From positions 9,700-73,699 of the forward strand of contig JACAEV010000140.1 of assembly GCA_013388645.1 (NCBI GenBank): a DNA stretch of 64,000 nucleotides, read 5' to 3'. This DNA is from Syntrophaceae bacterium (lineage in GTDB: Bacteria > Desulfobacterota > BSN033 > UBA1163). The notes under the pieces are model-generated. The model was given only the letters and a program-made list of their open reading frames with translations, ran no database searches and was not told the DNA's origin. The first letter of the stretch is position 1, and every line of letters begins with the position of its first letter. Positions 8,428 through 50,140 of this stretch are shown in pieces. The position numbers were made by a program, and so were the translations under genes.

Positions 8428-8761
8428 AGAGAAGAATAAGTGGCTTCAAGATAAGATGGAGACCCTCGGTATCCACGAAAAGGATATGGAAGAGCGATTC
8501 GTCCGATCCTCCGGCAGCGGTGGACAGAAGGTGAACAAGACCTCTACCTGTGTCTATCTCAAACATATTCCAACAGGAATTGAAATAAAATGCATGGAAG
8601 AAAGAAGTCAATCTCTCAATCGGTTTCTTGCCAGACGCGAACTGGTGAGAAGGATCGAAAAGTTGTCAGGGAAGTTGACCTCTGAAGAGATAAAGATTGA
8701 AAAGATAAAGCGGCAAAAGTTAAAAAGAAGGAAAAGGGCAAGGCAGAAATATTCGCTATAG
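8405..8761 (+). CDS. arfB: ArfB-like peptidyl-tRNA hydrolase (class I release-factor GGQ domain with basic C-terminal tail)
   Basis: SSGSGGQKVNKTSTCVYLKH GGQ motif. C-terminal tail EKIKRQKLKRRKRARQKY is Lys/Arg-rich like the ArfB ribosome-binding tail. Overlaps the upstream gene by 23 nt. Confidence 0.6.
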   Translation: MHQFPVSEEKNKWLQDKMETLGIHEKDMEERFVRSSGSGGQKVNKTSTCVYLKHIPTGIEIKCMEERSQSLNRFLARRELVRRIEKLSGKLTSEEIKIEKIKRQKLKRRKRARQKYSL

Positions 8762-14235: not shown

Positions 14236-14470
14236 ATTTTTATATTATCGCCAAAGGCGATCCGGCCTGCGGTTCCTAAATAAGCAAGTTCAATGCCAGC
14301 ACCGAAAAAGTGGCTTAACCCCTTATTTTATTTAAATATATTCAATTTGTAATATTAATTTTTTGACCGAATAATGACTTTTTTTGTCACCTAAAAAGAA
14401 GTCATGATGGCAATGTTATTTCATCGGCCCTTCAAGGAGTGTCAAGAATTACGGCGGGATTTTGGTCTGG

Positions 14471-15112
14471 TTAAGACACAATTATCTCATTCACATATTT
14501 TATCCAATCATATCCATAGGCGTCTTCATAGACCAATCTCAAGGGGAAACCATGTTTCTGGGGAAGCGTTTTACCGTTTACACGGTAGGCTAAAAAGATT
14601 TTTTTTTGATCAAGTGCCTTTGTAGGGATCCTCACACGCTTTTCGTAGGCCCCTATGATGTCAACATATTGCGCCTCTTTTCTGATCTGCGTCTCCTGGA
14701 GCAAACTCTTTAAATGAACACCTGTCCAACGACCATTATTGGAAAAGAAGCCGGGACAGATGAGAAGAACCGTCTCAGTTATTGAGGGATAATTAAGAAT
14801 TTGGTCATAACTCAAAGAAAGGGGTTGATTGACTTTACCCGCCACCTTCAGGCGATAAGTTTTTAAATCGATCGCTACATCGGTTGGTCCCATCGTCCCA
14901 AATGTTTTAAGCGGATCGATTTCGAGATTTCGAGTGTCAATCTCTTCCGGGTTCATATTCTTCAATTCTTCTCTTGATGCCCCTTTTGGGAGAAGCTTTT
15001 TTGCTTTGGCCCAGCAGATTGTGAAGGGATTGAGAATGAGGTTTGAAAAAGAAACCCATAGCCACGTTCTTAGTAGTTTTCTTCTCGTCCACATAAATAA
15101 ATAATAAAACAA
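14471..15112 (-). CDS. Sulfite-oxidase-family molybdopterin-binding domain protein (YedY/MsrP-like) with Tat signal
   Basis: LLICPGFFSNNGRWTGVHLKSLL...FLAYRVNGKTLPQKHGFPLRLVYEDAYGYDWIKYVNEIIV matches the Mo-co oxidoreductase fold. N-terminal MWTRRKLLRTWLWVSF is a twin-arginine motif, so the true start is probably the second Met. Confidence 0.55.
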   Translation of the reverse strand: MFYYLFMWTRRKLLRTWLWVSFSNLILNPFTICWAKAKKLLPKGASREELKNMNPEEIDTRNLEIDPLKTFGTMGPTDVAIDLKTYRLKVAGKVNQPLSLSYDQILNYPSITETVLLICPGFFSNNGRWTGVHLKSLLQETQIRKEAQYVDIIGAYEKRVRIPTKALDQKKIFLAYRVNGKTLPQKHGFPLRLVYEDAYGYDWIKYVNEIIVS

Positions 15113-15249
15113 TTTTTATGATAAGAAAAGGAGGTCGAAGATAGTGAATGTGATCTTGTTTTTTGACAAGCCTTTCTTACTGACTATTATAGGGATGACC
15201 GAAGCATTAAGCTTTGGGCACAGAAATGATATGGCTACCTTTTATGCAT

Positions 15250-16587
15250 TCATCCACGTGTAGAGTTCGTGGTCTTCTGCGTAGGTGGATAAAGGTACGA
15301 TTCGTATCGCACTTCTGGAATGATATTCCCACCAGATGGGAAGATCGCTACATCCGCTTGAGGCAACTTTTGAGAGACCTTCTCGATGGCATCCTGAATG
15401 GTAGAGGCGTACGAAAATTTCATCATCTTCACCTGCTCAGGTGAAAGACCCTCCGTGACATGTATCACCGTAAATTTTTCGGCCAATTCTTTAAAATAGA
15501 CCACTTGCATGATGTAAGAAATCCCAAAGGATTTGAGATGGTCGGGGACCTTGCCCTCGAGTAGCCGACGATGAAAATCCGCCGCTGTTTCATCGCTCGC
15601 CATTTCTTTGACCAATGGCATGATCGAGCCAGCCTCTTTCTGCGGAGCAACCCAGATGATAGCACCTCCTGACCGTGTGCAGAAACCTGACATGGTCAAT
15701 GCCTTTGTCGCCTGGACTCCTACTTCTAACGGGAAGGCCGAGGTGATGGTGACGTCTGCTAATTTCGAAAGGGGAATAGTATAGAGAGAGGTAGAAAACT
15801 TGGAGGCTTCCCTGTGTTCTAATTCCGGATTTCCTGTAAAGGCTTTGATTACCTCTTTCTTCTCATTGATGATGAAATCGAGTTTGAATGCCATTCGAGA
15901 TAATTTTCCCGCATCCAAAATCTCTTCATAGAACGGGTTTCCATCAAGGAGGTTAACTCTACTGTTGCGATGGCGCATCCAAGTGAAATGATGGCTGGCT
16001 ACCGAGCGATAGGAACATACTCCGGGCATGACGATCTTGTATCCCCCTCCGAATCCAGCGATGGGATGTGGCATACATTCGCCGACACCGATGATCAGAT
16101 CAGCAAAAGCGACATATCGATTGATTTCCACCAGTGTTCCTCGATGCGTTCTCCCAATGATGACATTGTCAGAGGCGTGGGGATCGTGAGGGAAAATGCG
16201 ACCCTTCAAGCGAGTAAATGCCTCTTTGCCCACCTTCTTTTCCAATTGTTCCAATATGGGAATGGGATGAGTTCCCAAAGCGCAGATCCCTGTAACCCGA
16301 TTATCCGGAATGCCGGCCCGATTAAGCCGATTTAAAATTTCAGGCAATGCCAAATGAACCGGTGTGGGCCGTTGAAGATCATCAAATAATAGGACGACCT
16401 CCATCCCCGGACGCGCCAATTCTTCAATCTTAGGTGATCCAATAGGGTGATCCAGAGCGAGTTTGATTTCTTGGATCGGATCTTTAACTCCCTGGATGGG
16501 TAGTTTGTCCTCAGCGGAAGTTAAGTTCCATCCCTTGGGGATAGAAAATGCTTTCCTCTCATTTTCATAGTTCAGATAACAAGACAT
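15250..16587 (-). CDS. LarA-like (DUF2088) lactate-racemase-domain protein
   Basis: ALGTHPIP and HPIAGFGGGYKIVMPG motifs resemble the nickel-pincer-cofactor-binding motifs of LarA-family racemases/epimerases. Confidence 0.6.
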   Translation of the reverse strand: MSCYLNYENERKAFSIPKGWNLTSAEDKLPIQGVKDPIQEIKLALDHPIGSPKIEELARPGMEVVLLFDDLQRPTPVHLALPEILNRLNRAGIPDNRVTGICALGTHPIPILEQLEKKVGKEAFTRLKGRIFPHDPHASDNVIIGRTHRGTLVEINRYVAFADLIIGVGECMPHPIAGFGGGYKIVMPGVCSYRSVASHHFTWMRHRNSRVNLLDGNPFYEEILDAGKLSRMAFKLDFIINEKKEVIKAFTGNPELEHREASKFSTSLYTIPLSKLADVTITSAFPLEVGVQATKALTMSGFCTRSGGAIIWVAPQKEAGSIMPLVKEMASDETAADFHRRLLEGKVPDHLKSFGISYIMQVVYFKELAEKFTVIHVTEGLSPEQVKMMKFSYASTIQDAIEKVSQKLPQADVAIFPSGGNIIPEVRYESYLYPPTQKTTNSTRG

Positions 16588-16693
16588 GGCGATCTCTCTT
16601 TTCTATAAGGCTTTAGGGGCTAACTCATTTTAACCATATTAACATTTCACCATGAAAGATGCAAACTGTAATCTTGACAAACTCAAGGTTACT

Positions 16694-16708
16694 GGGGTAC
16701 AGTACCCC
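16694..16708. promoter_or_regulatory. Perfect 7-1-7 palindrome GGGGTAC-A-GTACCCC at the 5' end of the GntR gene (candidate autoregulatory operator)
   Basis: Read directly from the sequence. It lies in the divergent larA-like/gntR intergenic region and contains the GT-N-AC core typical of GntR-family operators. Confidence 0.4.
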
Positions 16709-16710
16709 TG

Positions 16711-17436
16711 ATGCGACGACTGGTGATCAAGGATACGAAAACGATGCGGAGAAGAATCTATGAATATCTTCGGGAACAACTCTTGAATGGAGAGATCGCC
16801 CCTCGTGAGCATTTAATCGAAGGGAAGATTGCTAAAGAGATTGGAACATCGAGAACTCCAGTCAGAGAAGCTCTCCACGGCCTCGAGTTGGAAGGGTTAA
16901 TTGAATCCATCCCAAGGGTAGGGTATGTAGTGAAAGCCATCAGTGAACAAGAGGTGGAGGAGATCTGTGAGATCAGGATGGCCATCGAAGGGGTAGCCGC
17001 ACGCTGGGCGATGGAGAAGGACCATCCAAAATTAATGGAAGAACTTAAAAAAAATATTTCCCTCTCAAACGAGAAAGTGTCAAAGGGAGACGCTCGAGCC
17101 TTTATTGATCTGGATGCTCGATTTCATGAAATCATTGCTAAGCACAGTGGAAGTCAACGCCTCTTAGAATTGGCTCAAAACCTAAGACGACACATGCTTC
17201 GATACAGGTTACGAAGCATTTATTCGATGGATAATGTTGTAAGAGCAATTAAAGGACACAAAGGAATTCTCCGGGCAATCCAAAAAGGAGACATTGGAGA
17301 GGTCAATCAAGCCATTCGTGGTCATATGGAGCAGGTGAAAAAGGATGTCTTGAGATATGCCTTTAAAGAAACAGGGTTCGAGGGATCGAGGGGTCAAGGA
17401 GTCAAGCGATCGAGTGATAAAAGAATAAACACTTAA
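16711..17436 (+). CDS. GntR-family transcriptional regulator (FCD-type C-terminal domain)
   Basis: Winged-HTH region EHLIEGKIAKEIGTSRTPVREALHGLELEGLIESIPRVGYVV. The likely true start is the second Met at 16744 (MRRRIYEYL), which would leave the palindrome upstream. Confidence 0.8.
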   Translation: MRRLVIKDTKTMRRRIYEYLREQLLNGEIAPREHLIEGKIAKEIGTSRTPVREALHGLELEGLIESIPRVGYVVKAISEQEVEEICEIRMAIEGVAARWAMEKDHPKLMEELKKNISLSNEKVSKGDARAFIDLDARFHEIIAKHSGSQRLLELAQNLRRHMLRYRLRSIYSMDNVVRAIKGHKGILRAIQKGDIGEVNQAIRGHMEQVKKDVLRYAFKETGFEGSRGQGVKRSSDKRINT

Positions 17437-17478: not shown

Positions 17479-18030
17479 ATGATTGAAATCAAATTTAGAG
17501 GCCGCGGAGGGCAAGGGGCTGTTAGTGCTTCAGAGATTTTGGGCAGAGCCCTTTTTCTTGATGGGAAATACCCCCAATGCTTTTCATTGTTTGGAGGGGA
17601 GCGCCGAGGAGCTCCGGTGGTTGGATTCCTACGGGTCGACGAAGAGCCAATCCTCTTGAAATGTCAGATCTATCATCCGGATCATATCATTATTTTTGAC
17701 CCTTCATTAATTAACGAAGATGAAATTTTACAGGAGCTCAAACCAGGGGGAATGGTTCTGGTCAATATCAATGAGGAGATGGATTTCCTTCAATCCCTCA
17801 GGAAATTCAAAATCGGGTTCGTCAATGCCAGCTTGATAGCTAAAGATACGGGGGTAGGAAGCACCCTGAATACCGTGATGTTAGGAGCGTATATCCATTT
17901 GACGAATCTGGTCAAGATGGACACCTTGGTTGAAGCAGTGAAAACAATGGTCCCCTCCAAAATGGAGGAAAATATCCAAGCTGTCAAAGAAGGTTATCGC
18001 CAGGTAAAAATATTTGAGGTAGAGGAATAG
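17479..18030 (+). CDS. 2-oxoacid:ferredoxin oxidoreductase gamma subunit
   Basis: MIEIKFRGRGGQGAVSASEILGRA is the canonical PorC/KorC N-terminus. Confidence 0.8.
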   Translation: MIEIKFRGRGGQGAVSASEILGRALFLDGKYPQCFSLFGGERRGAPVVGFLRVDEEPILLKCQIYHPDHIIIFDPSLINEDEILQELKPGGMVLVNINEEMDFLQSLRKFKIGFVNASLIAKDTGVGSTLNTVMLGAYIHLTNLVKMDTLVEAVKTMVPSKMEENIQAVKEGYRQVKIFEVEE

Positions 18031-18035
18031 GGCGA

Positions 18036-19763
18036 TTGAATACAAATCATGAACCATCTTCCGAGTATGTGATTCCCATCTCCTTTGGAAGTACGGAAAT
18101 CATTGAAACAGGGAATTGGGGTTTTCTCAAACCTCAAACTTCCTTCATGACCGCTCCTTGCCAGGAGTCCTGCCCTGCAGGAAACCCCATTCCGCAATTT
18201 CTATACTTGGCAACTGATGGCCGATATCACGAAGCGCTTCAAATCCTTTTAAGAGAGAACCCTTTCCCTGGAGTATGCGGAAGGGTCTGTTTTCATCCCT
18301 GTGAGACCGACTGCAACCGAGCTCAGTATGATGAACCCGTTTCTATTCGTTCGATGGAAAGATATGTATCGGATGTAGCGGCGAATCAGCCTTTGAATCT
18401 TAAACCCGTCAGGAATGAGGGTTCAAAAAGGGTGGCTATTGTGGGGGCTGGTCCGGCAGGACTTTCATGCGCCTATTTCCTCTCTCTCTTAGGTCACCCA
18501 AGCACGATTTTTGAGAGCCAGAAGGAGCCAGGTGGAGTGATGCGCTGGGGAATTCCTGGATATCGCCTGCCGAAATCTATATTGAGAAAAGAGATTCAGA
18601 GGATTCTTTGTCTTCCCATTCAGATTAAGACGAATATCATTGTGGGCGAAGATATTTCTTTTGATGAATTAACTCAATTTGACGCTGTTTTTCTCTCTCC
18701 AGGGGCGGGGTTAAATACTTCCCTCTCTATTGAGGGAGAAGATTTGAAACAGGTTTGGATGGGTCAGGATTTTTTAGGGCGAATTAATTCAAAAGAGAAA
18801 GTCACTTTAGGAAAAGAATGTATTGTGATCGGAGGCGGCAATACCGCGATGGATGTTGCCCGGTCTGCCCTGCGTCTCGGTTCCAAAGTGACGGTCGCTT
18901 ATCGAAGAACCAAAGGGGAAATGCCAGCGATTCGGGATGAGATCATTGAGGCAGAGGAAGAAGGAGTCCGATTTGAATTCCTGATTCAACCTGTGAAAAT
19001 AAACCGTCTCCAAAATAAAAAGTTGGCTGTAACATTCCAGCGAATGAAGCTTAGCGGTCTGGATCCAAGCGGCCGACCTAAACCGATCCCAGTGAAAAGA
19101 AAATTTATCACCATGGAAACGGATCAACTGATCACTGCGGTGGGTGAACAGGTCGATCTTTCATGGATTCCTCAGGATCTTATTAAGAATGGTTTGATTG
19201 AAGGGAATCCCTCTTCTAAGATATTCGGAGGGGGAGATGCTATTGACCAGCCGCGGACAGTCGTCCACGCTATTTCTTCGGGGAAAAAAGCTGCCATTTC
19301 CATTGACCTTTGTTTGAGGGGGGAGTCGGTGAATCAGGTTTTTTCTAAAATTAAGGTTGGAAATAAAGGCGCTGTTTCGATGGGGGCTTATCTTAAAGGA
19401 AGAGAGGATGGAGAATGGCCGGAGGAACAACGGATCATCACCTATGAGCAGATCAATACCCTCTACTTTGAATCCAGCAGAAGAGTGAGGATGCGAAAGC
19501 GAAGCGATGATAAAAGGCTAAAAGGTTTTTCAGAGGTCAATTTAAGTTTTACTTCAAAAGAAGCCCATTTTTCAGCTTCGAGATGCTTTTCCTGCGGTAC
19601 GTGTAATTATTGTTACAACTGCTATTTTTTCTGTCCGGAGGGAGTGATTTCCCTCGATCCTGTTCAGAGAAGAAGAATCGTTGACTTTGAACACTGCAAA
19701 GGGTGTGGAACCTGTGCCAAGGTCTGCCCAAAGAGTGTTGTGGTGATGAAGGAAGTCGGTTAG
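18036..19763 (+). CDS. GltD/SudA-like NAD(P)H-dependent Fe-S flavoprotein fused to a PorD-type 2x[4Fe-4S] ferredoxin domain (occupies the delta-subunit position)
   Basis: N-terminal CQESCP...CGRVCFHPCETDC Cys cluster like glutamate synthase small subunit. VAIVGAGPAGLSCAYFL and IVIGGGNTAMDVA dinucleotide folds. C-terminal CFSCGTCNYCYNCYFFCP and CKGCGTCAKVCP ferredoxin motifs. Confidence 0.75.
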   Translation: MNTNHEPSSEYVIPISFGSTEIIETGNWGFLKPQTSFMTAPCQESCPAGNPIPQFLYLATDGRYHEALQILLRENPFPGVCGRVCFHPCETDCNRAQYDEPVSIRSMERYVSDVAANQPLNLKPVRNEGSKRVAIVGAGPAGLSCAYFLSLLGHPSTIFESQKEPGGVMRWGIPGYRLPKSILRKEIQRILCLPIQIKTNIIVGEDISFDELTQFDAVFLSPGAGLNTSLSIEGEDLKQVWMGQDFLGRINSKEKVTLGKECIVIGGGNTAMDVARSALRLGSKVTVAYRRTKGEMPAIRDEIIEAEEEGVRFEFLIQPVKINRLQNKKLAVTFQRMKLSGLDPSGRPKPIPVKRKFITMETDQLITAVGEQVDLSWIPQDLIKNGLIEGNPSSKIFGGGDAIDQPRTVVHAISSGKKAAISIDLCLRGESVNQVFSKIKVGNKGAVSMGAYLKGREDGEWPEEQRIITYEQINTLYFESSRRVRMRKRSDDKRLKGFSEVNLSFTSKEAHFSASRCFSCGTCNYCYNCYFFCPEGVISLDPVQRRRIVDFEHCKGCGTCAKVCPKSVVVMKEVG

Positions 19764-19830
19764 AAATGTTTAATCCGTTCTGCAGTGCTGCGGTACTGCA
19801 GTCATGCTGTGTATAAGTGAAGGAATAAGT

Positions 19831-20979
19831 ATGAAAGATTTTCTAACCGGAAATCATGCGGTGGCCCATGCAGTTAAACTTTGTCGGACCCCCCTGATCG
19901 CAGCTTACCCGATTACTCCTCAGACGGCCATCTACGAGAAACTTTCTGAATGGGAGGCATCGGGTGTGTTGAAGGGAATCATGATGCGGACAGAATCCGA
20001 ACATTCCGCAATGGCCTCCTGTATCGCGGCCTCCTTAACTGGAGTGAGGACCTTTACTGCTACTTCCTCTCAAGGGATTGCCCTCATGCATGAGATGCTT
20101 CATTTTGCTGCTGGCTGTCGTGCTCCAGTGGTTATGGCCAATGTCAATCGACTCTTGGCCGCTCCATGGGGATTCTGGGCTGACCAGTTAGATAGCCTTT
20201 CTCAGAGAGATACAGGATGGATTCAGTTTTACTGTGAAAATGGTCAGGAAGCCCTCGATACGGTCATTCAGTCTTACAAAATTGCGGAACAGGTTTATCT
20301 TCCAGCGATGGTTTCTCTGGAAGCCTTCTTTGTCTCCCATTTTATGGAGCCTGTGGACATTCCAGAACAGGAACAAGTCGATCGATTCCTTCCCCCTCTG
20401 GACCTTCCGCATAAGTTCGATATTGATAAGCCCGGATTTTTCGTCCCGGTGGTTTCGTCCGAATTATATCGGAAATATAAACATATGGCTCAGGAGTCCA
20501 TGGACTCTGTGAAAGAGATTGCCGTGAAAGTCGATCAAGAATTTAAGGAGGAATTTGGACGGGGTTATGGGATGATTGAGTCGGTTGCGCTGGAAGATGC
20601 GGAGGTAGCTCTTGTGACAGCGGGATCGATTACAAGCACAGCGAGGCTGGCCATAAAAAATCTTCGTAAACAAGGGAACAAGGTTGGCTTACTAAAGGTG
20701 CGCCTCTTTAGACCTTTTCCTGTGGAGGCAATTCAAGTGGCCCTAAAAGGGAAGAAAAAAATCGCAATCATTGATCGAAACCTCTCTCTTGGAAGCGGTG
20801 GGATATTCTGCCAAGAGTTGAGAGCAACTTTGATTCACTCTCCTGACCACCCCCTTACCTATAGTTATATTGCTGGAATAGGGGGGACAGATGTGACCCC
20901 TGAAGTCATTCAAAAAATTGCTATGGAAGTGATGAGTCGAACGGAACCAGTAGACAAGCCGATGTGGGTTATGGAATAG
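19831..20979 (+). CDS. 2-oxoacid:ferredoxin oxidoreductase alpha subunit
   Basis: LTGNHAVAHAVKLCRTPLIAAYPITPQT and the TESEHSAMASCIAASLTG motif. Start set at ATG 19831 (MKDFLTGN), in frame with the track ORF. Confidence 0.85.
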   Translation: MKDFLTGNHAVAHAVKLCRTPLIAAYPITPQTAIYEKLSEWEASGVLKGIMMRTESEHSAMASCIAASLTGVRTFTATSSQGIALMHEMLHFAAGCRAPVVMANVNRLLAAPWGFWADQLDSLSQRDTGWIQFYCENGQEALDTVIQSYKIAEQVYLPAMVSLEAFFVSHFMEPVDIPEQEQVDRFLPPLDLPHKFDIDKPGFFVPVVSSELYRKYKHMAQESMDSVKEIAVKVDQEFKEEFGRGYGMIESVALEDAEVALVTAGSITSTARLAIKNLRKQGNKVGLLKVRLFRPFPVEAIQVALKGKKKIAIIDRNLSLGSGGIFCQELRATLIHSPDHPLTYSYIAGIGGTDVTPEVIQKIAMEVMSRTEPVDKPMWVME

Positions 20980-20994
20980 TAGTGAATTACAGAA

Positions 20995-21110
20995 ACAAAT
21001 CCAAAACTCAAAAGGTTATATAGTTTTGAGTTTTGACGTTTGAATATTTGAGTTTGTTTAGAGTTTAGGGTTTCGAGTTTAGGGTTTAACTTCTTTGTTT
21101 CGGATTTTTC
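20995..21110. repeat. Intergenic palindromic element family A (tandem heptamers GTTTAGR / YCTAAAC); core 21052..21087
   Basis: The 36-nt core gtttgtttagagtttagggtttcgagtttagggttt is repeated with one mismatch at 50238..50273. A flanking 12-bp perfect hairpin caaaactcaaaa/ttttgagttttg lies just after the alpha-subunit stop. Confidence 0.7.
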
Positions 21111-21118
21111 GATAACTT

Positions 21119-22036
21119 ATGTTACCAGGCTGTGAGAGACGTATGATTCAACCAGAGCAACAACCCAACTTACTTCGGTCGGGTCATGCAGCCTGTGCGG
21201 GTTGCGGACTTGCTATCGGCATGAAACTGGTGCTTCAAGCCATGGGACCTCGAACCATAGCGGTGATTGTTCCATCCTGTGAAGGAGCTATCGGAGGAGT
21301 ATATCCTTATACTTCTTATGGGGTCCCGACCATCCATTCTGCTTTTGAAATTGCCGCTCCCACTGCAGCCGGGATCGCTAATGCCTTAAAAATTCAAGGA
21401 AGGGATGATATTCAAGTGTTGGCTTTTGCTGGAGATGGCGGAACGTTTGATATTGGTTTAGCATCTCTTTCAGGGGCAACCAAAAATAACGAGGATATCA
21501 TTTATGTCTGTCTCGATAACGAGGCCTACATGAATACCGGAATTCAGGTCAGCTCTGCCACTCCTTCCTATGCGTGGACAGGGACAACCCCCGAAGGGAA
21601 CCCCCGACGAAAGAAGAATATCATGGAGATCATGGCTGCCCATTACAATCCTTATTCAGCGACGGCGACGATCGGTTTTCCCCGCGATCTCCAGCAAAAA
21701 ATTACTAAAGCAAAAAACATCCGGGGGACAAAATTCATTCATCTGCTTGTCCCTTGCCCAACGGGTTGGAGGACACCATCCGACATTTCCCCTGAATTAT
21801 CCATTCTCGCTGTGGAGACGAAGGTTTTTCCCCTTTATGAGGTGGAAGATGGGAAGAGATATACCATCAACTATGAACCACGCCATCTCCCTATCCAGGA
21901 ATACCTTGTGAAACAGGGAAGATTTAGACATTTAAAGGAGGAGCAGATTAGAAAGATTCAAAGAGATGTGGATGAGGAGTGGGAGAAATTAAAACAAAGA
22001 GCAAGACCTTCCCCAAAAACAAGGGCTTTTAGTTAA
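21119..22036 (+). CDS. 2-oxoacid:ferredoxin oxidoreductase beta subunit (TPP-binding)
   Basis: GCGLAIGMKLV...AFAGDGGTFDIGLASLSGA...CLDNEAYMNTG thiamine-diphosphate-binding motifs. Confidence 0.85.
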   Translation: MLPGCERRMIQPEQQPNLLRSGHAACAGCGLAIGMKLVLQAMGPRTIAVIVPSCEGAIGGVYPYTSYGVPTIHSAFEIAAPTAAGIANALKIQGRDDIQVLAFAGDGGTFDIGLASLSGATKNNEDIIYVCLDNEAYMNTGIQVSSATPSYAWTGTTPEGNPRRKKNIMEIMAAHYNPYSATATIGFPRDLQQKITKAKNIRGTKFIHLLVPCPTGWRTPSDISPELSILAVETKVFPLYEVEDGKRYTINYEPRHLPIQEYLVKQGRFRHLKEEQIRKIQRDVDEEWEKLKQRARPSPKTRAFS

Positions 22037-22396
22037 GGTCAAGAAGCCAATGGTATACAAGGAACGACGAACAAAGAACGATAAACAGAGAGTATGAAGC
22101 AGTAGTTCTCGATCATCGTTTAACGTTCGATATGCCTTAAGGAAGCTTAAATCCTCAGTGATTGTTTCAAATAATACAAAGGAACGCTAATGCTTTTGGA
22201 AAAGGAGAGATTTTTAAAAAATTATTTTAAAATCCCCCGTTATTCCCTTTTGCCAAAGGAGGATAAGAAAGCCAATAACCAGGGATTACCAGGAAGCGAA
22301 TGTTTTATTGACCAGAAGTGGAAACACAAGGGGTTGGGTTTAGAGGTTGACCAGCCACAACGACCTCATTTACAACCCCATTGAAGAGAGGTGACC

Positions 22397-23068
22397 ATGA
22401 GAAAAATATTTTTTGTTTTAATGGTTTTCCTAACGATGGCATGGAATATCGCTGTGGCTGCTGAGAGGGACGTGGAGATTCAGGGAAAGACATTAACCTC
22501 AAAGAAACCACCCTTCGCTATCACCTTACCTGGCGCATTTAACCTCGCTCATTCTTCTTCATACGAAAATCCCAGAGAGAACTCTCTGACCCGTGTCTTT
22601 TTCCTCGTGAATGCAAAAGAGAAGCAGGTTGAAGAGATGCTCATCCTTCAGATTGCAGATAAAACGAATCCCCAAGCAGACCCAATGACCGTGCCCCCAT
22701 TGAAGCCTTATGCAGAGAAAAGATTGTATTCGAAAGGAAAAGTGAAAAAGGGAGAATTAGAGGTCGATTACCTGATTCAACTTATGGCATGGAATCCTGA
22801 GGCCCCTTCGCTTCAACCCATTTTGAAAAAAGGGTTCATCATTTCACCCATCTGGGCTCTTCAAGGACAATTTCTATTTCTTTATCAGGGAGAGCATGCT
22901 GCCTACTTCAGGTATTCAAAGAATATCAATTCCTTTGGGACAAAGGTCTCAGAAAAAGGAGAGGATTGGGGAAAAGAGATCATCAAAGGAAATGAAAAGA
23001 GAGTCTACGAAACTTTTCAAAAAATGTTTTTGGAAATGATCCATTCTATTCAAATAAAAAACCTATAG
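22397..23068 (+). CDS. Secreted hypothetical protein (signal peptide)
   Basis: MRKIFFVLMVFLTMAWNIAVAAE N-terminal signal. RBS AGAGAGGTG precedes ATG 22397. No recognisable domain. Confidence 0.45.
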   Translation: MRKIFFVLMVFLTMAWNIAVAAERDVEIQGKTLTSKKPPFAITLPGAFNLAHSSSYENPRENSLTRVFFLVNAKEKQVEEMLILQIADKTNPQADPMTVPPLKPYAEKRLYSKGKVKKGELEVDYLIQLMAWNPEAPSLQPILKKGFIISPIWALQGQFLFLYQGEHAAYFRYSKNINSFGTKVSEKGEDWGKEIIKGNEKRVYETFQKMFLEMIHSIQIKNL

Positions 23069-23160: not shown

Positions 23161-24075
23161 TTGCAGAAGATCTTTTCGATGAAAGAGGCTGTCTTACGGT
23201 TCGTTGAGGACGGCGACTCCATTGTCATGGGTGCCGCCTTAGAGGCAGCCATACCATTTGCCTTCGGACATGAAATCATCCGACAGGAGAAAAAGAATCT
23301 TACCCTGGTTGGACCTATTTCCGATATGCTCTTTGATCAAATGATCGGTTCTGGATGTATTCATAAGGTGGCGGCTGCATGGATTGGAAATGTAATCATG
23401 GGTGTTGGATATAACATGAGAAGGGCTGTTGAGGAAGGCATTCCCAGGAAAGTGGAGGTAGATGATTATACGAATTTTACCATTTCATTAGCTCTTCATG
23501 CAGGAGCCCTCGGTATCCCTTTTATTCCAACAAAAAGCCTTTTAGGCACAGGGATGATGTCAGGAAGAATGCCATTCCAGGAGATGGATTGTCCTTATAC
23601 AAAAGAAAAACTCGCTTTAGTCCCAGCCCTAAACCCCGATGTAGCAGTTGTCCAAGCACAAAGAGCAGATGAGGAAGGAAATACACATTATTGGGGCGGA
23701 AGCGGTGTGACGAAAGAAGCCGCCCTTTCTGCTCGCAAGGTGATCGTGGTAACGGAAGAAGTTGTAAGTAAAAAAGTGATTCGGCGAGACCCGAATCGAA
23801 CCCTCATCCCCGGGTTTTTGGTCCATGCTGTTATTCATGAACCTTGGGGAGCGCATCCGTCTCCCATGCAGGGTTATTATAATCGAGATCATGAAAAATA
23901 TATGAGCTATTATCAAGAATCTAAGGAAAGAGAGGGATATCTGAGATGGCTTGATAAATGGGTCTTTGGTGTGAAAGACAGAGGAGAATATCTCAAGCTT
24001 TTAGGTGAAGAGAAGATGAAATCACTTTTAATCAAGCGCCGCAGAAAATCACTGACGGTGGATTATGGATACTAA
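23161..24075 (+). CDS. Class I CoA-transferase subunit A (glutaconate/3-oxoacid CoA-transferase alpha-like)
   Basis: AVLRFVEDGDSIVMGAALEAAIPFAFGHEIIRQ and VAAAWIGNV motifs typical of AtoD/GctA-type alpha subunits. Confidence 0.75.
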   Translation: MQKIFSMKEAVLRFVEDGDSIVMGAALEAAIPFAFGHEIIRQEKKNLTLVGPISDMLFDQMIGSGCIHKVAAAWIGNVIMGVGYNMRRAVEEGIPRKVEVDDYTNFTISLALHAGALGIPFIPTKSLLGTGMMSGRMPFQEMDCPYTKEKLALVPALNPDVAVVQAQRADEEGNTHYWGGSGVTKEAALSARKVIVVTEEVVSKKVIRRDPNRTLIPGFLVHAVIHEPWGAHPSPMQGYYNRDHEKYMSYYQESKEREGYLRWLDKWVFGVKDRGEYLKLLGEEKMKSLLIKRRRKSLTVDYGY

Positions 24076-24084
24076 AAAAGTGGA

Positions 24085-24175
24085 AAATTGGAATGATGGA
24101 TTGTTGGAATGCTGGGTAAATAAGGGAACATTTTGGTTTTCATATCATTCCAGTATTCCATTATTCCTGATCATA
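24085..24175. repeat. Intergenic palindromic element family B (GGAATRNTGG / CCANYATTCC units)
   Basis: Imperfect hairpin ggaatgatggattgttggaatgctgg ... catatcattccagtattccattattcc. A second copy lies at 46125..46235 and a half-copy around 23100..23135. Confidence 0.6.
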
Positions 24176-24177
24176 TT

Positions 24178-24990
24178 ATGATCGAGTGTGATCGAAGTGG
24201 AGAGCCCAACTTGCGAGCGGCTGATTACACAATGCAGGAACTAATGGTGGTGGCTGGGGCGCGGGAAATTCGCGACGACGATGTGGTCTTTGTGGGGATG
24301 AGACTTCCGCTTTTAGCTTTCCAATTGGCTAAGGCCACTCACGCTCCTCATGCCATCGGGATCTTTGAAAACGGAATTTTAAGAGATAAACCAGCAGGCG
24401 ATGCCCTTTACACGATGGGAGATACCCCCAATATTGAAGGTGCAATTTGGACCACTTCGATGATGGACATCATGTCCCTTTTACAAAGCGGAAAAGTAAG
24501 TTTAGGTTTTATTGGTGGTGCGGAGGTAGACCGTTTCGGCAATCTTAATACTACTTACATTGGAGGAAAAGAAAGGGTTAGAATTCGACTTCCAGGAAGT
24601 GGAGGGGGAAGCGACATCGCTTCGCTTGCTGGAAGGGTGATCATCATGATGAGCCATGAGAGGCGACGGTTTGTGGAGAGAGTCAGTTATATTACCTCCC
24701 CTGGCTTTGGGGACGGTGAGAATTGGAGAGAGAGAAACGGTTTGAAGGGAGGAGGGCCATGTGCTGTCATTACAACCAAGGGAATATTGAGATTTGATTC
24801 TAAAACAAAAGAGATGGTTCTTGACTCGGTTCACCCAGGAGTCATAGTGGAGGAAGTCCTTGAAAATACCGGATGGAATTTAAATTATAAATCAAGAATT
24901 AAAGAAACAGACCCACCTACACGGTTGGAACTTCGAACGATAAGAAGATTTGATCCAACTGGTTTTTGGACAAGAAACGGCATGAAGTGA
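24178..24990 (+). CDS. Class I CoA-transferase subunit B (GctB-like)
   Basis: AADYT...GMRLPLLAFQLAK, GFIGGAEVDRFGNLNTTYIGG, LPGSGGGSDIASLAGRVIIMMSHERRRF. The track start 24133 lies inside the palindromic element; ATG 24178 (or 24232) is the likely start. Confidence 0.75.
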   Translation: MIECDRSGEPNLRAADYTMQELMVVAGAREIRDDDVVFVGMRLPLLAFQLAKATHAPHAIGIFENGILRDKPAGDALYTMGDTPNIEGAIWTTSMMDIMSLLQSGKVSLGFIGGAEVDRFGNLNTTYIGGKERVRIRLPGSGGGSDIASLAGRVIIMMSHERRRFVERVSYITSPGFGDGENWRERNGLKGGGPCAVITTKGILRFDSKTKEMVLDSVHPGVIVEEVLENTGWNLNYKSRIKETDPPTRLELRTIRRFDPTGFWTRNGMK

Positions 24991-25158: not shown

Positions 25159-25950
25159 ATGTCCGAGATATTCCTTGGAGACCTTGCCCAAGTAAAGCTT
25201 TTTGACATCCTAAAACCCTTATTGATGGGGAAAAAAACGGGTAAATTGTCCTTCAGGGGCAAGGAGAATGGTGAAATGTACTTAGAATCGGGTAACATTG
25301 TTCATGCAAAAGCCCCTGATTCTTCAGGAGAATATGGTTTTTTTACCCTTATGGGATGGAAGGCGGGGAGAATATCATTCGAACCGGACGAACCCCCACC
25401 GGAGAAAACCATTCCAATCCCCTCTGAACAGTTACTGTTAAATTGGTCTACAAAAAAGATAGAATGGGAGAGGATTCGAGAGATCATTCATTCTAACAAT
25501 GCTGTTTTTTCGCTTTCTTCTCAGAATAATGGAGAAAGCAAGACGATCAGTGCCGATCAGTGGAGCGTATTGGTTTTATCGAATGGATCAAGGAATGTTT
25601 CAGAAATTGCCAAAACGCTTAATTGGGATGAGTTCAAGGTCATCCGGACCATTTATAAACTTGTCCAAGCAGGGTTATTGGAGCAAGCGGGAGAACCAAA
25701 ACCGGTAAAGAAAAAATTGGTGCGGGAAACTTTTTTCTCACTCATTGAGAATGAATTGCGAAAAGTCATGGGAGCTGTTTCTCCCTTCGTGGTGGAGGAT
25801 AAACTCGTTGAATTCGGAGAGAAGAGGGATTCCTTTCCCCAAGAGAAATTATTATCTTTTGTGGAAGCCTTAGGGGAGGAGATCCCTCAGGACGATAGAA
25901 GAAAAGAATTTAAGAAGGCGGTCATGGAATTTTTCTCAAGCGAAAAATAA
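25159..25950 (+). CDS. DUF4388 (PATAN-like) domain protein
   Basis: LAQVKLFDILKPLLMGKKTGKLSFRGKENGEMYLESGNIVHA matches the DUF4388/PatA-N-terminal signature. Confidence 0.55.
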   Translation: MSEIFLGDLAQVKLFDILKPLLMGKKTGKLSFRGKENGEMYLESGNIVHAKAPDSSGEYGFFTLMGWKAGRISFEPDEPPPEKTIPIPSEQLLLNWSTKKIEWERIREIIHSNNAVFSLSSQNNGESKTISADQWSVLVLSNGSRNVSEIAKTLNWDEFKVIRTIYKLVQAGLLEQAGEPKPVKKKLVRETFFSLIENELRKVMGAVSPFVVEDKLVEFGEKRDSFPQEKLLSFVEALGEEIPQDDRRKEFKKAVMEFFSSEK

Positions 25951-26000
25951 AATATTTTTAGAATCTGTCCACTGGACAGGGAATTTAAAAGGAGGGATTT

Positions 26001-26957: not shown

Positions 26958-27051
26958 GAATGGAGTTTTTAACCTCGAAGTTTTTAAGTTGGGTGATTTT
27001 CAAAAACTCTGAACTACGAACTCATCACTCCGAACTTATAAGGGGGAAGCC

Positions 27052-28413: not shown

Positions 28414-28567
28414 TATTTTTAGGGGTGGTCAACTGTATGTTTTTAATTTGGACTTTTTATGTCAAAAATGTTAGGAAGGGGGTGGTTCTAAGAACAGAGT
28501 GGATTAAGGCTTTTTTTGTGACCATTTGATTTTAATTTTTATTAAATTACAAAAGGAGGTTAGGAAG

Positions 28568-29578
28568 ATGAGACGTTGGAAGATGATCAGTTTCGTTCTT
28601 TGTTTGTCGTTGATTGGATTTGTTGCTTCACCTGCATTGGCGCAGATTAAGCTAAATTACTCCGTGTTTTTTCCTGCCCCACATAAGAATGCTGTCCTTG
28701 CAACGGATTGGGCCAAAGAGATCGAAAAGAGGACAGGTGGGAAGGTTCAAATTACCGTTTTTCCAGGTGGAACATTGACACCTGCTGATAAGTGCTACGA
28801 TGGGGTGGTAAAAGGAATATCAGATATTGGTTTTTCAGTGATGGCCTACACCAGGGGAAAGTTCCCTTTGACAGAGGTTTCCGATTTGCCAATGGGTATG
28901 AAAACTGGGTTGGTCGCCACAAAAGTGATCAATGACTATTTTAAAAAATTTAAACCTAAAGAATTTGATGAAGTGAAAGTCATGTATCTCCATGGTCATG
29001 GTCCTGGGATCATTCATAGTAAAAAAGAAATCAAGACACTCGGAGATCTCAAAGGGGTCAAAATCCGCTGCACGGGAATGGCGGCAAAGATCGTTCAAGC
29101 CCTTGGGGCTACTCCAGTGGCCATGCCCATGGGTGAAACCTACGATGCTTTGAGCAGAGGCGTGGTTGATGCCTCCATGTCGCCACAAGAAGCACTGCAG
29201 GGCTGGAAATGGGGAGAAGTCGTGAAGTTTACCATTGAAAACTTTGGATCCTCTTACAGTACAGGGATGTTCGTTGTAATGAATAAAGATAAGTGGAATT
29301 CTTTACCCCCGGACATTCAGAAGATCATCGAACAGGTGAATGAAGAATATATTGAAAAACAGGGGAAGGTTTGGGATGAAATCGATAAAGCGGGAAGAGA
29401 TTATACGATTGCTCGTGGTAACAAAATCATTTCTCTTTCAGCGGATGAAGATAGAAAGTGGGAAAAGGCTGTCAAACCCCTTCTCGATGAATACAAGAAG
29501 AATATGAAGGATAAGGGCCTCCCTGGGGATGAAGTGCTGAGTTTCTATTTCCAGACCATCTATAAATATCAAAAGTAA
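28568..29578 (+). CDS. dctP: TRAP transporter substrate-binding protein (DctP family)
   Basis: Signal peptide MRRWKMISFVLCLSLIGFVASPALAQ and DctP-fold motifs. RBS AAAGGAGG precedes ATG 28568. Confidence 0.8.
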   Translation: MRRWKMISFVLCLSLIGFVASPALAQIKLNYSVFFPAPHKNAVLATDWAKEIEKRTGGKVQITVFPGGTLTPADKCYDGVVKGISDIGFSVMAYTRGKFPLTEVSDLPMGMKTGLVATKVINDYFKKFKPKEFDEVKVMYLHGHGPGIIHSKKEIKTLGDLKGVKIRCTGMAAKIVQALGATPVAMPMGETYDALSRGVVDASMSPQEALQGWKWGEVVKFTIENFGSSYSTGMFVVMNKDKWNSLPPDIQKIIEQVNEEYIEKQGKVWDEIDKAGRDYTIARGNKIISLSADEDRKWEKAVKPLLDEYKKNMKDKGLPGDEVLSFYFQTIYKYQK

Positions 29579-29587
29579 GTCAGAAAG

Positions 29588-29629
29588 AGGGGGAGGGAGG
29601 AGATATCAATATCCCATCCCCCTTTTTTA
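29588..29629 (+). terminator. Intrinsic-terminator-like GC-rich hairpin plus T7 tract between dctP and dctQ
   Basis: GGGGGAGGGAGGAGATATCAATATCCCATCCCCC followed by TTTTTTT. Confidence 0.45.
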
Positions 29630-29665
29630 TTGGATTTAAGTTTTTTCGTTGAAGAGGAGCGATCC

Positions 29666-30148
29666 ATGGAAGGATTTTTAAAAATGGTCAATGGAATAAG
29701 CCGATACTTCAATATCATTGCGGGAATGAGTCTAACATTCCTCATGCTCTTAACCATCCTGGATGTTATTTTAAGAGGGTTTAGAAGTCCTGTCCCGGGC
29801 ACCTATGAAGTGGTGGCTTTTGCAGGGGCGGTCGTCATTGGATTTTCTATGCCCATGACCTCTTGGTTGAGAGCCCATATTTTTGTCGATTTTTTTATTT
29901 TAAGATTTTCCAAAAAAGTAAGAGACGTCTTCAACATTGCCACGAGATGCGTGGTCATCATTTTATTTTTCTTGATCGGCTGGAACATGTTCAAGTATGC
30001 AATGGATTTACAAAAGTCAGGAGAGGTTTCCCTCACTTTACAAATGCCTTTCTACCCGGTCGCTTATGGCGTAGGGGTTTGTTGTTTCATTCAATGCCTT
30101 GTGATGGTATGCGATATCGTGAAGATCTTTGGAGGGGAATATGAATGA
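29666..30148 (+). CDS. dctQ: TRAP transporter small permease (DctQ family)
   Basis: ~160-aa protein with four hydrophobic helices between dctP and dctM. RBS GAGGAG precedes ATG 29666. Confidence 0.7.
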   Translation: MEGFLKMVNGISRYFNIIAGMSLTFLMLLTILDVILRGFRSPVPGTYEVVAFAGAVVIGFSMPMTSWLRAHIFVDFFILRFSKKVRDVFNIATRCVVIILFFLIGWNMFKYAMDLQKSGEVSLTLQMPFYPVAYGVGVCCFIQCLVMVCDIVKIFGGEYE

Positions 30149-31442
30149 AGTGATGATTGGTATTATTGGACTGGCTGTCGTGCTGGTATTGTTTCTGACC
30201 GGCATTGAGCTTGGTTTTGCCATGGCCCTGGTTGGGTTTCTGGGTTTTAGTTATATCGTTTCTTTCAAAGCTGGATTAAACTTGATTGCAAAGGATATCT
30301 TCGATGTCTTTGCTTCTTATGGGTTTACTGTCATTCCCCTCTTTGTCCTCATGGGTCAGATCGCATTCAATGCCGGTATTGCAAAGAGGTTGTACAATAC
30401 TGCCTATCGTTTTATTGGACATGTCCCAGGAGGGATGGCCATGGCCACGGTTGCAGGAGCGACAGCATTTAAAGCGATTTGTGGTTCATCTCCTGCGACA
30501 GCAGCCACCTTTGCCAGCGTGGCTGTCCCTGAAATGGATCGATATAATTATGACAAAAAATTATCTACAGGAATTGTTGCCACGGTGGGAACCCTGGGCA
30601 TCCTGATTCCGCCCAGTGTTACGCTGATTGTATTTGGGATCATTACAGAGCAATCTATCGGAAAACTATTTCTGGCTGGACTGATTCCGGGATTAATCAT
30701 CGCCTTCTTTTTTATTTGCATCATTTATGTATGGTGTAAGATTAACCCGAGTTTAGGGCCTAAGGGCGAAAAATCAACATGGAAGGAAAGGTTGGCCTCG
30801 CTACCAGAGTTTGCCCTGGTCGTGGTTATCTTCTTATTGATGATTTGGGGATTGATGAAAGGGTTCTTTACACCGACCGAGGCAGGGAGCGTTGGGACGG
30901 CGGCTGTTCTTCTTATGTCTATTTTAAGAAGGGACATTAATTTTAAAGGTTTCATCAAATCGGTAGCAGAGTCTTTACGCACTGCCTGTATGGTTCTCAT
31001 GCTGATCGCCGGATCTACTATCTTAGGCCATTTTCTCGCCGTTACAAAAATTCCAATGATCGCAGCCGATTGGGTGGTGGGACTCCCTCTCAACAAATAC
31101 ATTATTATGATTATTATCAGTTTAATTTACCAGACGGGGGGATCTTTTATTGATGACCTGGCTTTCATGGTTCTTGCTACGCCGATATTCTATCCTGTCA
31201 TTATCAAATTGGGTTTTGATCCAATATGGTTCGGTATGATCATTGCCATTACGGTCATGATCGGGGTCGTCATCCCTCCTGTGGCGATCAATGTCTTTGT
31301 AGTAAAAAATATCACCAAAACTCCATTTAATGTGATTTACAAGGGAGTCTATCCCTTTTTGATCAGCCTTGGAGTTTGCGGGGCATTACTCTTTCTTTTC
31401 CCGGAACTCGCCACTTGGCTTCCTTCTGTATTGATGAAGTAG
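30141..31442 (+). CDS. dctM: TRAP transporter large permease (DctM family)
   Basis: ~430-aa polytopic membrane protein with the DctM signature. Overlaps dctQ by 8 nt. RBS GGAGGGG precedes ATG 30141. Confidence 0.8.
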   Translation: MNEVMIGIIGLAVVLVLFLTGIELGFAMALVGFLGFSYIVSFKAGLNLIAKDIFDVFASYGFTVIPLFVLMGQIAFNAGIAKRLYNTAYRFIGHVPGGMAMATVAGATAFKAICGSSPATAATFASVAVPEMDRYNYDKKLSTGIVATVGTLGILIPPSVTLIVFGIITEQSIGKLFLAGLIPGLIIAFFFICIIYVWCKINPSLGPKGEKSTWKERLASLPEFALVVVIFLLMIWGLMKGFFTPTEAGSVGTAAVLLMSILRRDINFKGFIKSVAESLRTACMVLMLIAGSTILGHFLAVTKIPMIAADWVVGLPLNKYIIMIIISLIYQTGGSFIDDLAFMVLATPIFYPVIIKLGFDPIWFGMIIAITVMIGVVIPPVAINVFVVKNITKTPFNVIYKGVYPFLISLGVCGALLFLFPELATWLPSVLMK

Positions 31443-50113: not shown

Positions 50114-50140
50114 GAACGAATTTCCCTCCTACAAAAAATA

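Follow-up and report, generated by a model that had tools for sequence, protein, structure and literature searches.

A circularly permuted flavoprotein set into the delta subunit of a 2-oxoacid:ferredoxin oxidoreductase suggests a hard-wired link to NADP+ in a Syntrophaceae bacterium

We describe an operon in a 64,000-nucleotide stretch of DNA from a Syntrophaceae bacterium (NCBI GenBank assembly GCA_013388645.1, contig JACAEV010000140.1, positions 9,700 to 73,699 of the forward strand), which is called the window in the following and numbered from its first letter. Its four co-directional genes gamma, X, alpha and beta belong to a 2-oxoacid:ferredoxin oxidoreductase (OFOR). The product of X takes the place of the delta subunit and combines two proteins in one: a PorD-type delta, split into an N-terminal arm and a C-terminal ferredoxin core, and a circularly permuted NADPH flavoprotein of the NfnB/GltD type, which is located between the two parts. 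As judged from this anatomy and from comparative genomics, and with a precedent in a homologous system, a hard-wired link of the oxidoreductase to NADP+ is well supported. Beyond that, we think it probable, though by no means certain, that the product of the operon is a catabolic 2-oxoacid:NADP+ oxidoreductase which needs no ferredoxin and forms acyl-CoA.

An earlier note on this DNA had read the order gamma, X, alpha, beta from the open reading frames, and both Pfam and NCBIfam agree with it (Table 1). The start codon of X, a TTG, lies 5 bp past the stop codon of gamma, and a gap of 42 bp separates gamma from a gntR gene upstream. Gamma scores 181 bits against TIGR02175 (cutoff 81). In alpha, Pfam detects PF01855 (E 6e-61) and PF17147 (E 1e-27), and its translation contains the sequence AAYPITPQT. 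The best match to alpha among solved structures is 9bt4_B, the alpha subunit of a four-subunit pyruvate:ferredoxin oxidoreductase (PFOR; 283 bits), and the best NCBIfam model is PorA_Arch, with 439 bits under a cutoff of 550. The translation of beta shows the thiamine pyrophosphate (TPP) site GDGG...LDNEAYMNTG and four cysteines for one [4Fe-4S] cluster (Cys26, Cys29, Cys54 and Cys213). The real start of beta is probably the ATG at 21143, as relatives begin at the equivalent of M9. Beta matches the VorB-type model PRK11864 with 362 bits and PorB with 346 bits, missing the cutoff of 405 in both cases. Judged by these matches, gamma, alpha and beta are the core of an OFOR of the POR/VOR type.

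Three Pfam domains are recognized in X, Fer4_20 (residues 39-118), Pyr_redox_2 (132-416) and Fer4_7 (522-567). The protein is 100% identical to the NCBI entry 'MAG: FAD-dependent oxidoreductase [Syntrophaceae bacterium]' and is matched end to end by the NCBIfam model NF009410 (PRK12771, 'NAD(P)-binding protein'; 536.5 bits, cutoff 516, E 8e-161), with X 20-572 corresponding to model positions 28-563 of 566. The earlier note had described X as a GltD-like N-terminus followed by a PorD-type ferredoxin. Both modules are indeed present, the second with CxxCxxCxxxCP motifs at residues 523 and 554, but the order has to be corrected: the PorD arm comes first and the flavoprotein is permuted. Native X scores 42.7 bits against the delta subunit model TIGR02179 (PorD_KorD; cutoff 60.05), and residues 478-575 alone score 46.2 bits and cover model positions 25-75. 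When X 1-38 is joined to X 520-575 (94 aa), the score rises to 61.2 bits and positions 6-75 of 78 are covered, so that the cutoff for a delta subunit is passed only by the split product. The arm (FGSTEIIETGNWGFLKP) has the consensus TGxWRxxRP, with T25, G26 and P33 each retained in at least 90% of 59 diverse homologues of 31-53% identity.

The permutation is seen from both ends of the flavoprotein. Fer4_20 covers only model positions 29-111 of 113 in X, and of the CxxCx4Cx3CP motif only CxxxCP (C42, C46) is retained. In the HMMER alignment to NfnB of Thermotoga (4ylf_B), X 39-430 corresponds to residues 44-462, and X 481-522 to residues 3-44; this latter segment also aligns with residues 8-46 of 5jca_L. 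It is the segment which opens NfnB and GltD and gives the first two cysteines of the distal cluster. The same permuted order is found in 9n5u_A (353 bits), 9bov_A and 8oh5_C (StnC), the best-scoring solved relatives of X (range 302-353 bits). By these alignments, the flavoprotein in X is circularly permuted and set between delta arm and delta core.

Through the relocation, the CxxC of the moved segment abuts the first ferredoxin motif, giving a run of six cysteines (C517-C520-C523-C526-C529-C533). Among the 59 homologues no exchange of C46, C85, C89, C93, C517 or C520 is seen, and C42 is retained in at least 90%; C81 is less conserved. In the ferredoxin core seven of the eight cysteines are invariant and C526 is conserved to at least 90%. 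We assume the ligand sets of dihydropyrimidine dehydrogenase (DPD) and NfnB, by which the distal cluster would be held by C517, C520, C42 and C93, and the proximal one by C46, C85, C89 and a fourth, non-Cys or variable ligand. Because the conserved cysteines can be assigned by this homology, four [4Fe-4S] clusters and one FAD are predicted for X. As for the pyridine nucleotide, 45 homologues all share the YRR motif, and VAYRRT (289-292), unchanged in close homologues, matches the NADPH-binding strand of NfnB, which suggests that X prefers NADP(H) over NAD(H).

Conservation of gene order gives a second line of evidence. A genome scan yielded 25 loci, mostly from close relatives, in metagenome-assembled genomes (MAGs) of Thermodesulfobacteriota (Syntrophaceae, Syntrophorhabdus) and Nitrospirota and in one member of the Peptococcaceae; wider genomic context was taken from a plasmid collection. 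The order gamma, X, alpha, beta was found in every one of these loci long enough to show it, about 20 of them from deltaproteobacterial or Nitrospirota MAGs. It is also shared by the Peptococcaceae locus (L023), where identity is 35% for X and 52% for alpha, with otherwise unrelated neighbours. No delta-like gene other than X was found in the operon. As X is the sole delta subunit, the NAD(P)H-binding Fe-S flavoprotein would be physically part of the oxidoreductase, and the claim of the earlier note that such a module is built into the enzyme is supported by the conserved order and by natural fusions.

These fusions came from a homologue search against 1.84 billion cluster representatives (50% identity), of which the best 150 matches were analysed. 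In 103 of the 150 the length is 520-640 aa; 95 of these 103 have the six-Cys run and 86 of the 95 also the TGxW arm. The fusion of delta and flavoprotein, the frequency of which the earlier note had wished to see surveyed, is not rare, with its signature in at least 95 of the best 150 clusters. It is widespread, the curated NCBIfam subfamily to which it belongs counting thousands of proteins, and it is not described in the literature searched (open-access full texts). A further 19 of the best 150 matches are 690-800 aa long, and all five that were scanned are fusions of gamma and X with the order POR, Fer4_20, Pyr_redox_2 (P0152, P0155, P0176, P0217 and P0248, about 730-760 aa). Four larger proteins (P0170, P0244, P0249 and P0255, about 990-1190 aa) have an IorA-like core of POR_N and/or TPP_enzyme_C, then the flavoprotein and mostly then a C-terminal ferredoxin domain. 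The permuted flavoprotein immediately precedes a ferredoxin domain in three host families, PorD, IorA and the NuoG-like StnC.

Homologues of X are also located immediately upstream of korA/korB-type genes on plasmid 2 of Aromatoleum aromaticum EbN1; in Phenylobacterium, Methylovirgula and Aeromonas, the gene that directly follows the X homologue is nifJ, and the Phenylobacterium protein scores 742 bits against NF009410. From the korAB and nifJ contexts together with the fusions it follows that the X-type module occurs with, or fused to, four different OFOR architectures. In Phenylobacterium and Methylovirgula there is a conserved triad of an NF009410-type protein, nifJ (a monomeric PFOR) and a 'dihydroorotate dehydrogenase-like' gene (L030 5920-12209, L031 5001-11327 and L034 5001-10123, a set which includes Aeromonas); the unannotated Aeromonas record shows at least the X-like gene, then nifJ. 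Jointly, the X-like and the dihydroorotate dehydrogenase (DHOD)-like proteins represent the cofactor set of DPD, split around PFOR. In Ilyobacter an X-like gene stands in a rhodanese context with no OFOR.

From these features the following mechanism can be proposed. Alpha, beta and gamma would form the catalytic core of POR/VOR type with TPP and the one [4Fe-4S] cluster in beta, onto which the N-terminal arm and the two-cluster core of X would dock in the manner of PorD, and the inserted NfnB-like module would contribute two further [4Fe-4S] clusters, FAD and the NADPH site. Oxidative decarboxylation at TPP would release two single low-potential electrons, which would travel over five clusters, from the [4Fe-4S] of beta through the two delta clusters to the distal and then the proximal cluster, to FAD. 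There they would be collected and passed on as hydride to NADP+. Standard potentials are about -500 mV for the acyl-CoA + CO2/2-oxoacid couple and -320 mV for NADP+; on these values the oxidative direction is about 35 kJ/mol downhill and the reverse about 180 mV uphill.

Several points weigh against a ferredoxin-independent 2-oxoacid:NADP+ oxidoreductase. Giving electrons of -500 mV to NADP+ wastes about 35 kJ/mol, which is odd for a syntroph that normally needs reduced ferredoxin. The choice of NADP over NAD depends on a single motif. Every equivalog-level model for alpha, beta or gamma misses its cutoff; this holds for the models of the pyruvate, 2-oxoisovalerate, 2-oxoglutarate, oxalate, phenylglyoxylate and indolepyruvate enzymes (alpha reaches 373 bits against VorA with a cutoff of 646, and 237 against the alpha subunit of oxalate oxidoreductase, OOR, with a cutoff of 500). 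The AlphaFold2 model of X, based on 45 homologues of 69-79% identity, is poor (mean predicted local distance difference test, pLDDT, 50.5), and a Foldseek search with it gave nothing beyond the sequence-level matches. Given the DHOD-like gene beside the nifJ-linked X-like genes, the module may in some contexts feed or draw on another flavoenzyme and not exclusively NADP(H). Finally, free ferredoxin may still have access to the delta clusters, in which case the enzyme could serve both acceptors.

This last point leads to an alternative which we judge unlikely, a dual-acceptor enzyme whose main job is the reduction of free ferredoxin at the delta clusters, with the flavoprotein as a side valve to NADP(H) in either direction. 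The PorD-type core of X is intact and would be the usual docking site of ferredoxin, NfnB-like ferredoxin:NADP+ oxidoreductases (Fnor) work reversibly with ferredoxin (PMC12221290), and reduced ferredoxin would be of benefit to a syntroph. However, the insertion lies just where the delta core begins, and C517 and C520 run directly into the first ferredoxin motif (CxxCxxCxxCxxCxxxC), which suggests a buried, continuous wire. Moreover, no ferredoxin gene belongs to the conserved cluster.

It is very unlikely that the FAD of X performs flavin-based bifurcation or confurcation, that is, couples the oxidation of the 2-oxoacid to two acceptors, for instance NADP+ and a second partner, with energy conserved as in NfnAB. 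The idea has some basis, as NfnB, a homologue of the module, is a bifurcating subunit and Arg177 of X, the counterpart of NfnB Arg201, is conserved. According to a 2025 study of 27 enzymes, a true NfnB is marked by an nfnA gene upstream of it, by a long N-terminus and by conservation of Arg333, and NfnB-like proteins which stand alone without NfnA are simple ferredoxin:NADP+ oxidoreductases (PMC12221290). None of the three marks was found here. A gene for NfnA or a PyrK-like partner is absent from window positions 11-32 kb and from the related loci L026-L028, and the gene upstream of X is gamma. The extended N-terminus of NfnB is not at the start of X, the segment being placed at 481-522 instead. 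The Arg333 of PfNfnI is replaced by Ile299 (EMTAR333EEE of 5jca_L against EMPAI299RDE). We therefore rejected X as a bifurcating NfnB. In the closest solved relatives, the permuted GltD domains of StnC and NfnABC, the site of bifurcation has in both cases been placed outside that flavin alone; the GltD domain of StnC, residues 102-565 between an N-terminal [2Fe-2S] element and the following [4Fe-4S] domain, has a non-bifurcating FAD (PMC10482914). The best reading of the FAD in X is a plain, non-bifurcating converter between one-electron and two-electron transfer. An assignment to GltD itself was rejected as well (TIGR01317 197 bits with a cutoff of 448, TIGR01318 263 with a cutoff of 483; the neighbours are OFOR subunits).

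Highly improbable, in our view, is a merely co-transcribed X which acts as a separate redox enzyme, for example a reductase akin to sulfide dehydrogenase or DPD that works with the ferredoxin domain it carries itself. GltD-like proteins do have many partners, and both the DHOD-like gene near nifJ and the Ilyobacter locus would suit such a view, but it would leave the operon with no delta subunit and disregards the PorD arm on X and the covalent gamma-X and IorA-X fusions. Least of all do we believe in an anabolic 2-oxoacid synthase for the NADPH-driven reductive carboxylation of acyl-CoA, a reverse use which the earlier note had allowed for: in principle OFORs can work backwards, and electrons might pass along the wire in both directions, but the reaction would be about 35 kJ/mol uphill from NADPH with no coupling partner encoded, and the neighbours (uptake transporter, racemase, GntR/FCD regulator, CoA-transferase) are a catabolic set.

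The closest functional precedent for a 2-oxoacid:NADP+ oxidoreductase comes from Azoarcus and Aromatoleum. A 2-oxoglutarate:NADP+ oxidoreductase is known from Azoarcus evansii (Ebenau-Jehle et al. 2003). In this enzyme, KorAB with a BzdV/KorC-type FAD/Fe-S subunit, electrons pass from an OFOR to NADP+ via an attached Fe-S flavoprotein, as we propose for the window. It reportedly has subunits of 63, 62 and 37 kDa and contains FAD. BzdV together with KorAB is regarded as a ferredoxin-regenerating system; the enzyme oxidises 2-oxoglutarate and serves as the electron supply of benzoyl-CoA reductase. The arrangement of the EbN1 genes is the one expected for the A. evansii enzyme. The 595 aa protein encoded upstream of korA/korB in EbN1 (WP_011255089) is 29% identical to X 42-574 (BLASTP, E 1e-68) and shares with X the permuted order, the C-terminal two-cluster ferredoxin domain and the best NCBIfam model. 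Unlike X, it has no PorD N-terminal arm, as the alignment begins at C42, and it reaches only 389 bits against NF009410 (cutoff 516). The architectures differ accordingly: the Azoarcus type is a two-subunit KorAB with no delta, whereas the window has a four-subunit enzyme of POR/VOR type with the flavoprotein inside delta. Its gamma is a separate gene, and alpha scores 107 bits against TIGR03710, the fused alpha-gamma KorA (cutoff 483).

A second known system is the NADH-dependent phenylglyoxylate dehydrogenase PadEFGHI of Azoarcus and Thauera, likewise a POR/VOR-related OFOR with an extra FAD subunit which reduces pyridine nucleotide directly. It has five subunits, with delta (PadF, about 100 aa) and flavoprotein separate, whereas in the window both are fused and there are four genes. 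PadE, PadG, PadI and PadF rank as the fifth-to-eighth best NCBIfam matches of gamma, alpha, beta and the delta core. Membership in this family was rejected by the scores (PadE 135 bits with a cutoff of 300, PadF 34 with 150, PadG 275 with 700, PadI 215 with 700), and no Pad flavoprotein model appears among the best 25 of the 88 NCBIfam families that match X.

Fnor enzymes of the Cac_0764 type resemble X in having Fer4_20 and Pyr_redox_2, two [4Fe-4S] clusters and FAD, no NfnA and an unconserved Arg333, and they couple ferredoxin and NADP(H) without bifurcation (PMC12221290). They are, however, free-standing and unpermuted proteins of about 400-470 aa that use soluble ferredoxin, whereas X is permuted and joined to the delta subunit of its electron donor. 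StnC and the large subunits of NfnABC share with X the F.EV...RCxxC segment after the flavin domain and the location of the module between an N-terminal element and a [4Fe-4S] domain. The hosts are different, a NuoG/FdhF-like protein of a Bfu-type bifurcating complex in StnC/NfnABC and PorD of an OFOR in X. The eukaryotic pyruvate:NADP+ oxidoreductase (PNO) of Euglena and Cryptosporidium is a monomeric PFOR fused to an FMN/FAD module of the NADPH-cytochrome P450 reductase (CPR) type. The earlier note had compared the two as similar in function and built from different parts, and this holds: both would wire an OFOR to the reduction of NADP+, Pfam finds no CPR-type domains in X, and the likeness is one of analogy, not of homology.

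Table 1. Features of the operon and its neighbourhood (positions in the window; residue numbers refer to X)
Feature	Position	Strand	Basis
LarA-like nickel-pincer (NPN) 2-hydroxyacid racemase/epimerase homologue, divergent from the operon	15250..16587	-	Lar_N + LarA_C
Perfect 7+1+7 palindrome, 15 bp, GGGGTACAGTACCCC	16695..16709	.	read from the sequence
GntR-family regulator with FCD ligand domain, first operon gene	16711..17436	+	GntR + FCD
gamma, OFOR gamma subunit, 183 aa	17479..18030	+	PF01558 (E 1.6e-35); TIGR02175 PorC_KorC
X, delta subunit with inserted circularly permuted NfnB/GltD-like NADPH flavoprotein, 575 aa	18036..19763	+	NF009410
X 13-38, PorD-type N-terminal arm (TGNWGF..KP)	18072..18149	+	chimera test; conservation
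X 39-118, Fe-S domain of the flavoprotein without the first CxxC (C42, C46, C81, C85, C89, C93)	18150..18389	+	Fer4_20
X 128-430, FAD and NADPH dinucleotide folds (GAGPAG 137, GGGNTA 266, YRR 289-291)	18417..19325	+	Pyr_redox_2; NfnB, StnC and NfnABC structure alignments
X 481-522, relocated NfnB/GltD N-terminal segment (F.EV...A..RC517xxC520)	19476..19601	+	NfnB alignment
X 523-575, PorD-type 2x[4Fe-4S] ferredoxin core	19602..19760	+	CxxCxxCxxxCP motifs; PorD_KorD, PorD_Arch, PRK09624
alpha, OFOR alpha subunit, 391 aa, substrate loop NRLLAAPWGFWADQ	19804..20979	+	POR_N + PFOR_II, YPITP
alpha-beta spacer, AT-rich, heptad-repeat element	20980..21118	.	Tandem Repeats Finder, periods 7 and 14
beta, OFOR beta subunit, 305 aa as open reading frame	21119..22036	+	TPP_enzyme_C (PF02775), GDG...N
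Conserved 225 aa protein, hydrophobic N-terminus	22391..23068	+	homologues 56-73% identical
Two-subunit family-I CoA-transferase, GctAB-like (A 23161-24075, B 24133-24990)	23161..24990	+	CoA_trans in both
TRAP transporter dctPQM	28526..31442	+	DctP, DctQ and DctM domains

The genes around the operon bear on the class of its substrate. The divergent LarA homologue stays under every NCBIfam cutoff, with the malate racemase LarAH6 as best model (263 bits, cutoff 500); its best matches among solved structures are the malate racemase Mar2 (6d6z_A, E 1e-56) and the lactate racemase LarA (5huq_A, E 2e-43). A LarA homologue of 74-82% identity stands at the same place in about 18 related loci, and GntR homologues of 66-76% identity are likewise at the same place in relatives. 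The perfect palindrome, which the earlier note had seen at the gntR start, ends one base before the ATG at 16711 and shares bases with the -10 hexamer of a site that resembles a promoter (16674-16703, TTGACA-18-TACAGT). Its core TGGGGTACAGTAC is kept upstream of gntR in 12 related loci, the proteins of which are only about 70% identical. Very likely it is the operator of an autoregulated gntR operon and of the divergent larA. Counts in the promoter and terminator scan were not above those of shuffled sequence, the palindrome-overlapping site being the only one of note, and no Rfam family reached its gathering score in the whole window.

In the related loci L026-L028 the order is larA-like and dctP on the minus strand, followed by gntR, gamma, X, alpha, beta, dctQ, dctM, dctP, orf223, CoA-transferase A and B, PatA_N/DUF4388 and Cache-HAMP. 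The window has the same order, minus the genes of the tripartite ATP-independent periplasmic (TRAP) transporter at both sites (22037-22390 and 16588-16710; the counterparts in L026 are at 13961-16892 and 7606-8628). A dctPQM set is present 6.5 kb downstream, its DctP 62% identical to the larA-adjacent DctP of another relative, L010 (tblastn), as if transporter genes had been deleted or rearranged in this genome. The conserved gene cluster is present in more than 20 genomes. CoA-transferase A matches the glutaconate CoA-transferase GctA over its full length (1poi_A, E 2e-44), and the two CoA-transferase genes are at the same place in L026-L028. For the 225 aa protein at 22391-23068 neither Pfam nor NCBIfam gave a match; in relatives it is always located after the TRAP genes and before the CoA-transferase genes. 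Genes with DUF4388/PatA_N and Cache-HAMP domains (25159-28188) follow the CoA-transferase here and in relatives, and may be a second sensory layer for the same substrate. An Oxidored_molyb (YedY/MsrP-like) gene of 213 aa (14471-15112, minus strand) lies just past larA; it occurs also in L004 and, farther off, in L026.

The TRAP binding protein encoded within the operon of the relatives is closest to Bpro_4736 of Polaromonas (4mnc/4mni, E 2e-56), and its next matches are binders of lactate, of alpha-keto acids (TakP) and of alpha-ketovalerate; its AlphaFold2 model has a pLDDT of 51. The larA-adjacent binding protein is closest to the group of 4n6d, 4pgn/4nap and 7nr2/7nsw. Reportedly, Bpro_4736 was crystallised with benzoylformate and 4pgn with indolepyruvate, and lignin-derived aromatic acids are bound by the 7nr2 group. 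No 2-hydroxyacid dehydrogenase gene is present in the cluster. Because of the LarA-like racemase, the GntR/FCD regulator with its operator, the TRAP transporter and the GctAB-like CoA-transferase, the cluster looks catabolic and would break down an imported chiral 2-hydroxy or 2-oxo monocarboxylic acid, possibly an aromatic one.

A feature of alpha may be related to this. Its substrate loop (residues 113-128, window 20140-20170) reads APWGFW(A/P)DQ, and the PWGFW is invariant in all X-linked alpha subunits examined, including that of the Firmicute locus L023 (7644-8738) with its 52% identity. The corresponding sequences are PINIW in PFOR and PGDFG in OOR. The PWGFW loop may be a signature of a substrate class or of the X-linked clade.

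The spacer between alpha and beta varies in length from 19 to 417 bp among relatives. Here, it consists of heptads AGTTT[T/A]G, in which GAGTTTAGGGTTT occurs twice without mismatch and an inverted half gives a 12-bp hairpin. The pair of this 13-mer occurs also in the intergenic region 50110-50290 (at 50246-50272), and at up to two mismatches it has 8 matches compared with 2.15 expected. The RNA fold of the spacer is no more stable than that of shuffled sequence (z = -0.85). The element may be a small one, similar to repetitive extragenic palindromes (REP) or miniature inverted-repeat transposable elements (MITE).

Taking cluster and enzyme together, one may speculate further, and we put this forward as a tentative and doubtful proposal. 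In Syntrophales and Nitrospirota, the cluster could represent an anaerobic pathway, so far undescribed, for 2-hydroxy or 2-oxo acids that are chiral and aromatic, of the mandelate/phenylglyoxylate or aryl-lactate/aryl-pyruvate type. In it, a nickel-pincer racemase would be followed by the NADP+-linked, ferredoxin-independent OFOR, with benzoyl-CoA or arylacetyl-CoA as the product. In that case, the permuted NfnB cassette would serve as an NADP adaptor of general use, which can be inserted into different proteins and stands just ahead of the ferredoxin domain in PorD, IorA and NuoG-like proteins.

OFORs which carry an FAD subunit and are linked to NADP or NAD were already described in 1998-2003. 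As the arrangement of X is common and a curated family model exists, too, no new principle is involved. The topology of a split delta with a permuted flavoprotein is nevertheless a clean case of domain insertion making an electron wire, and as a self-contained module it may be of use in engineering, as stand-alone NfnB-like Fnor enzymes already are. Such genes are at present annotated only as 'FAD-dependent oxidoreductase' and 'pyruvate ferredoxin oxidoreductase', and the consequence for annotation is broad since the family is large. If our reading is true, these anaerobes would oxidise 2-oxoacids without drawing on the soluble ferredoxin pool, make NADPH directly and render the step irreversible, and metabolic reconstructions would have to show a different electron flow for Syntrophales, Nitrospirota and many other MAGs.

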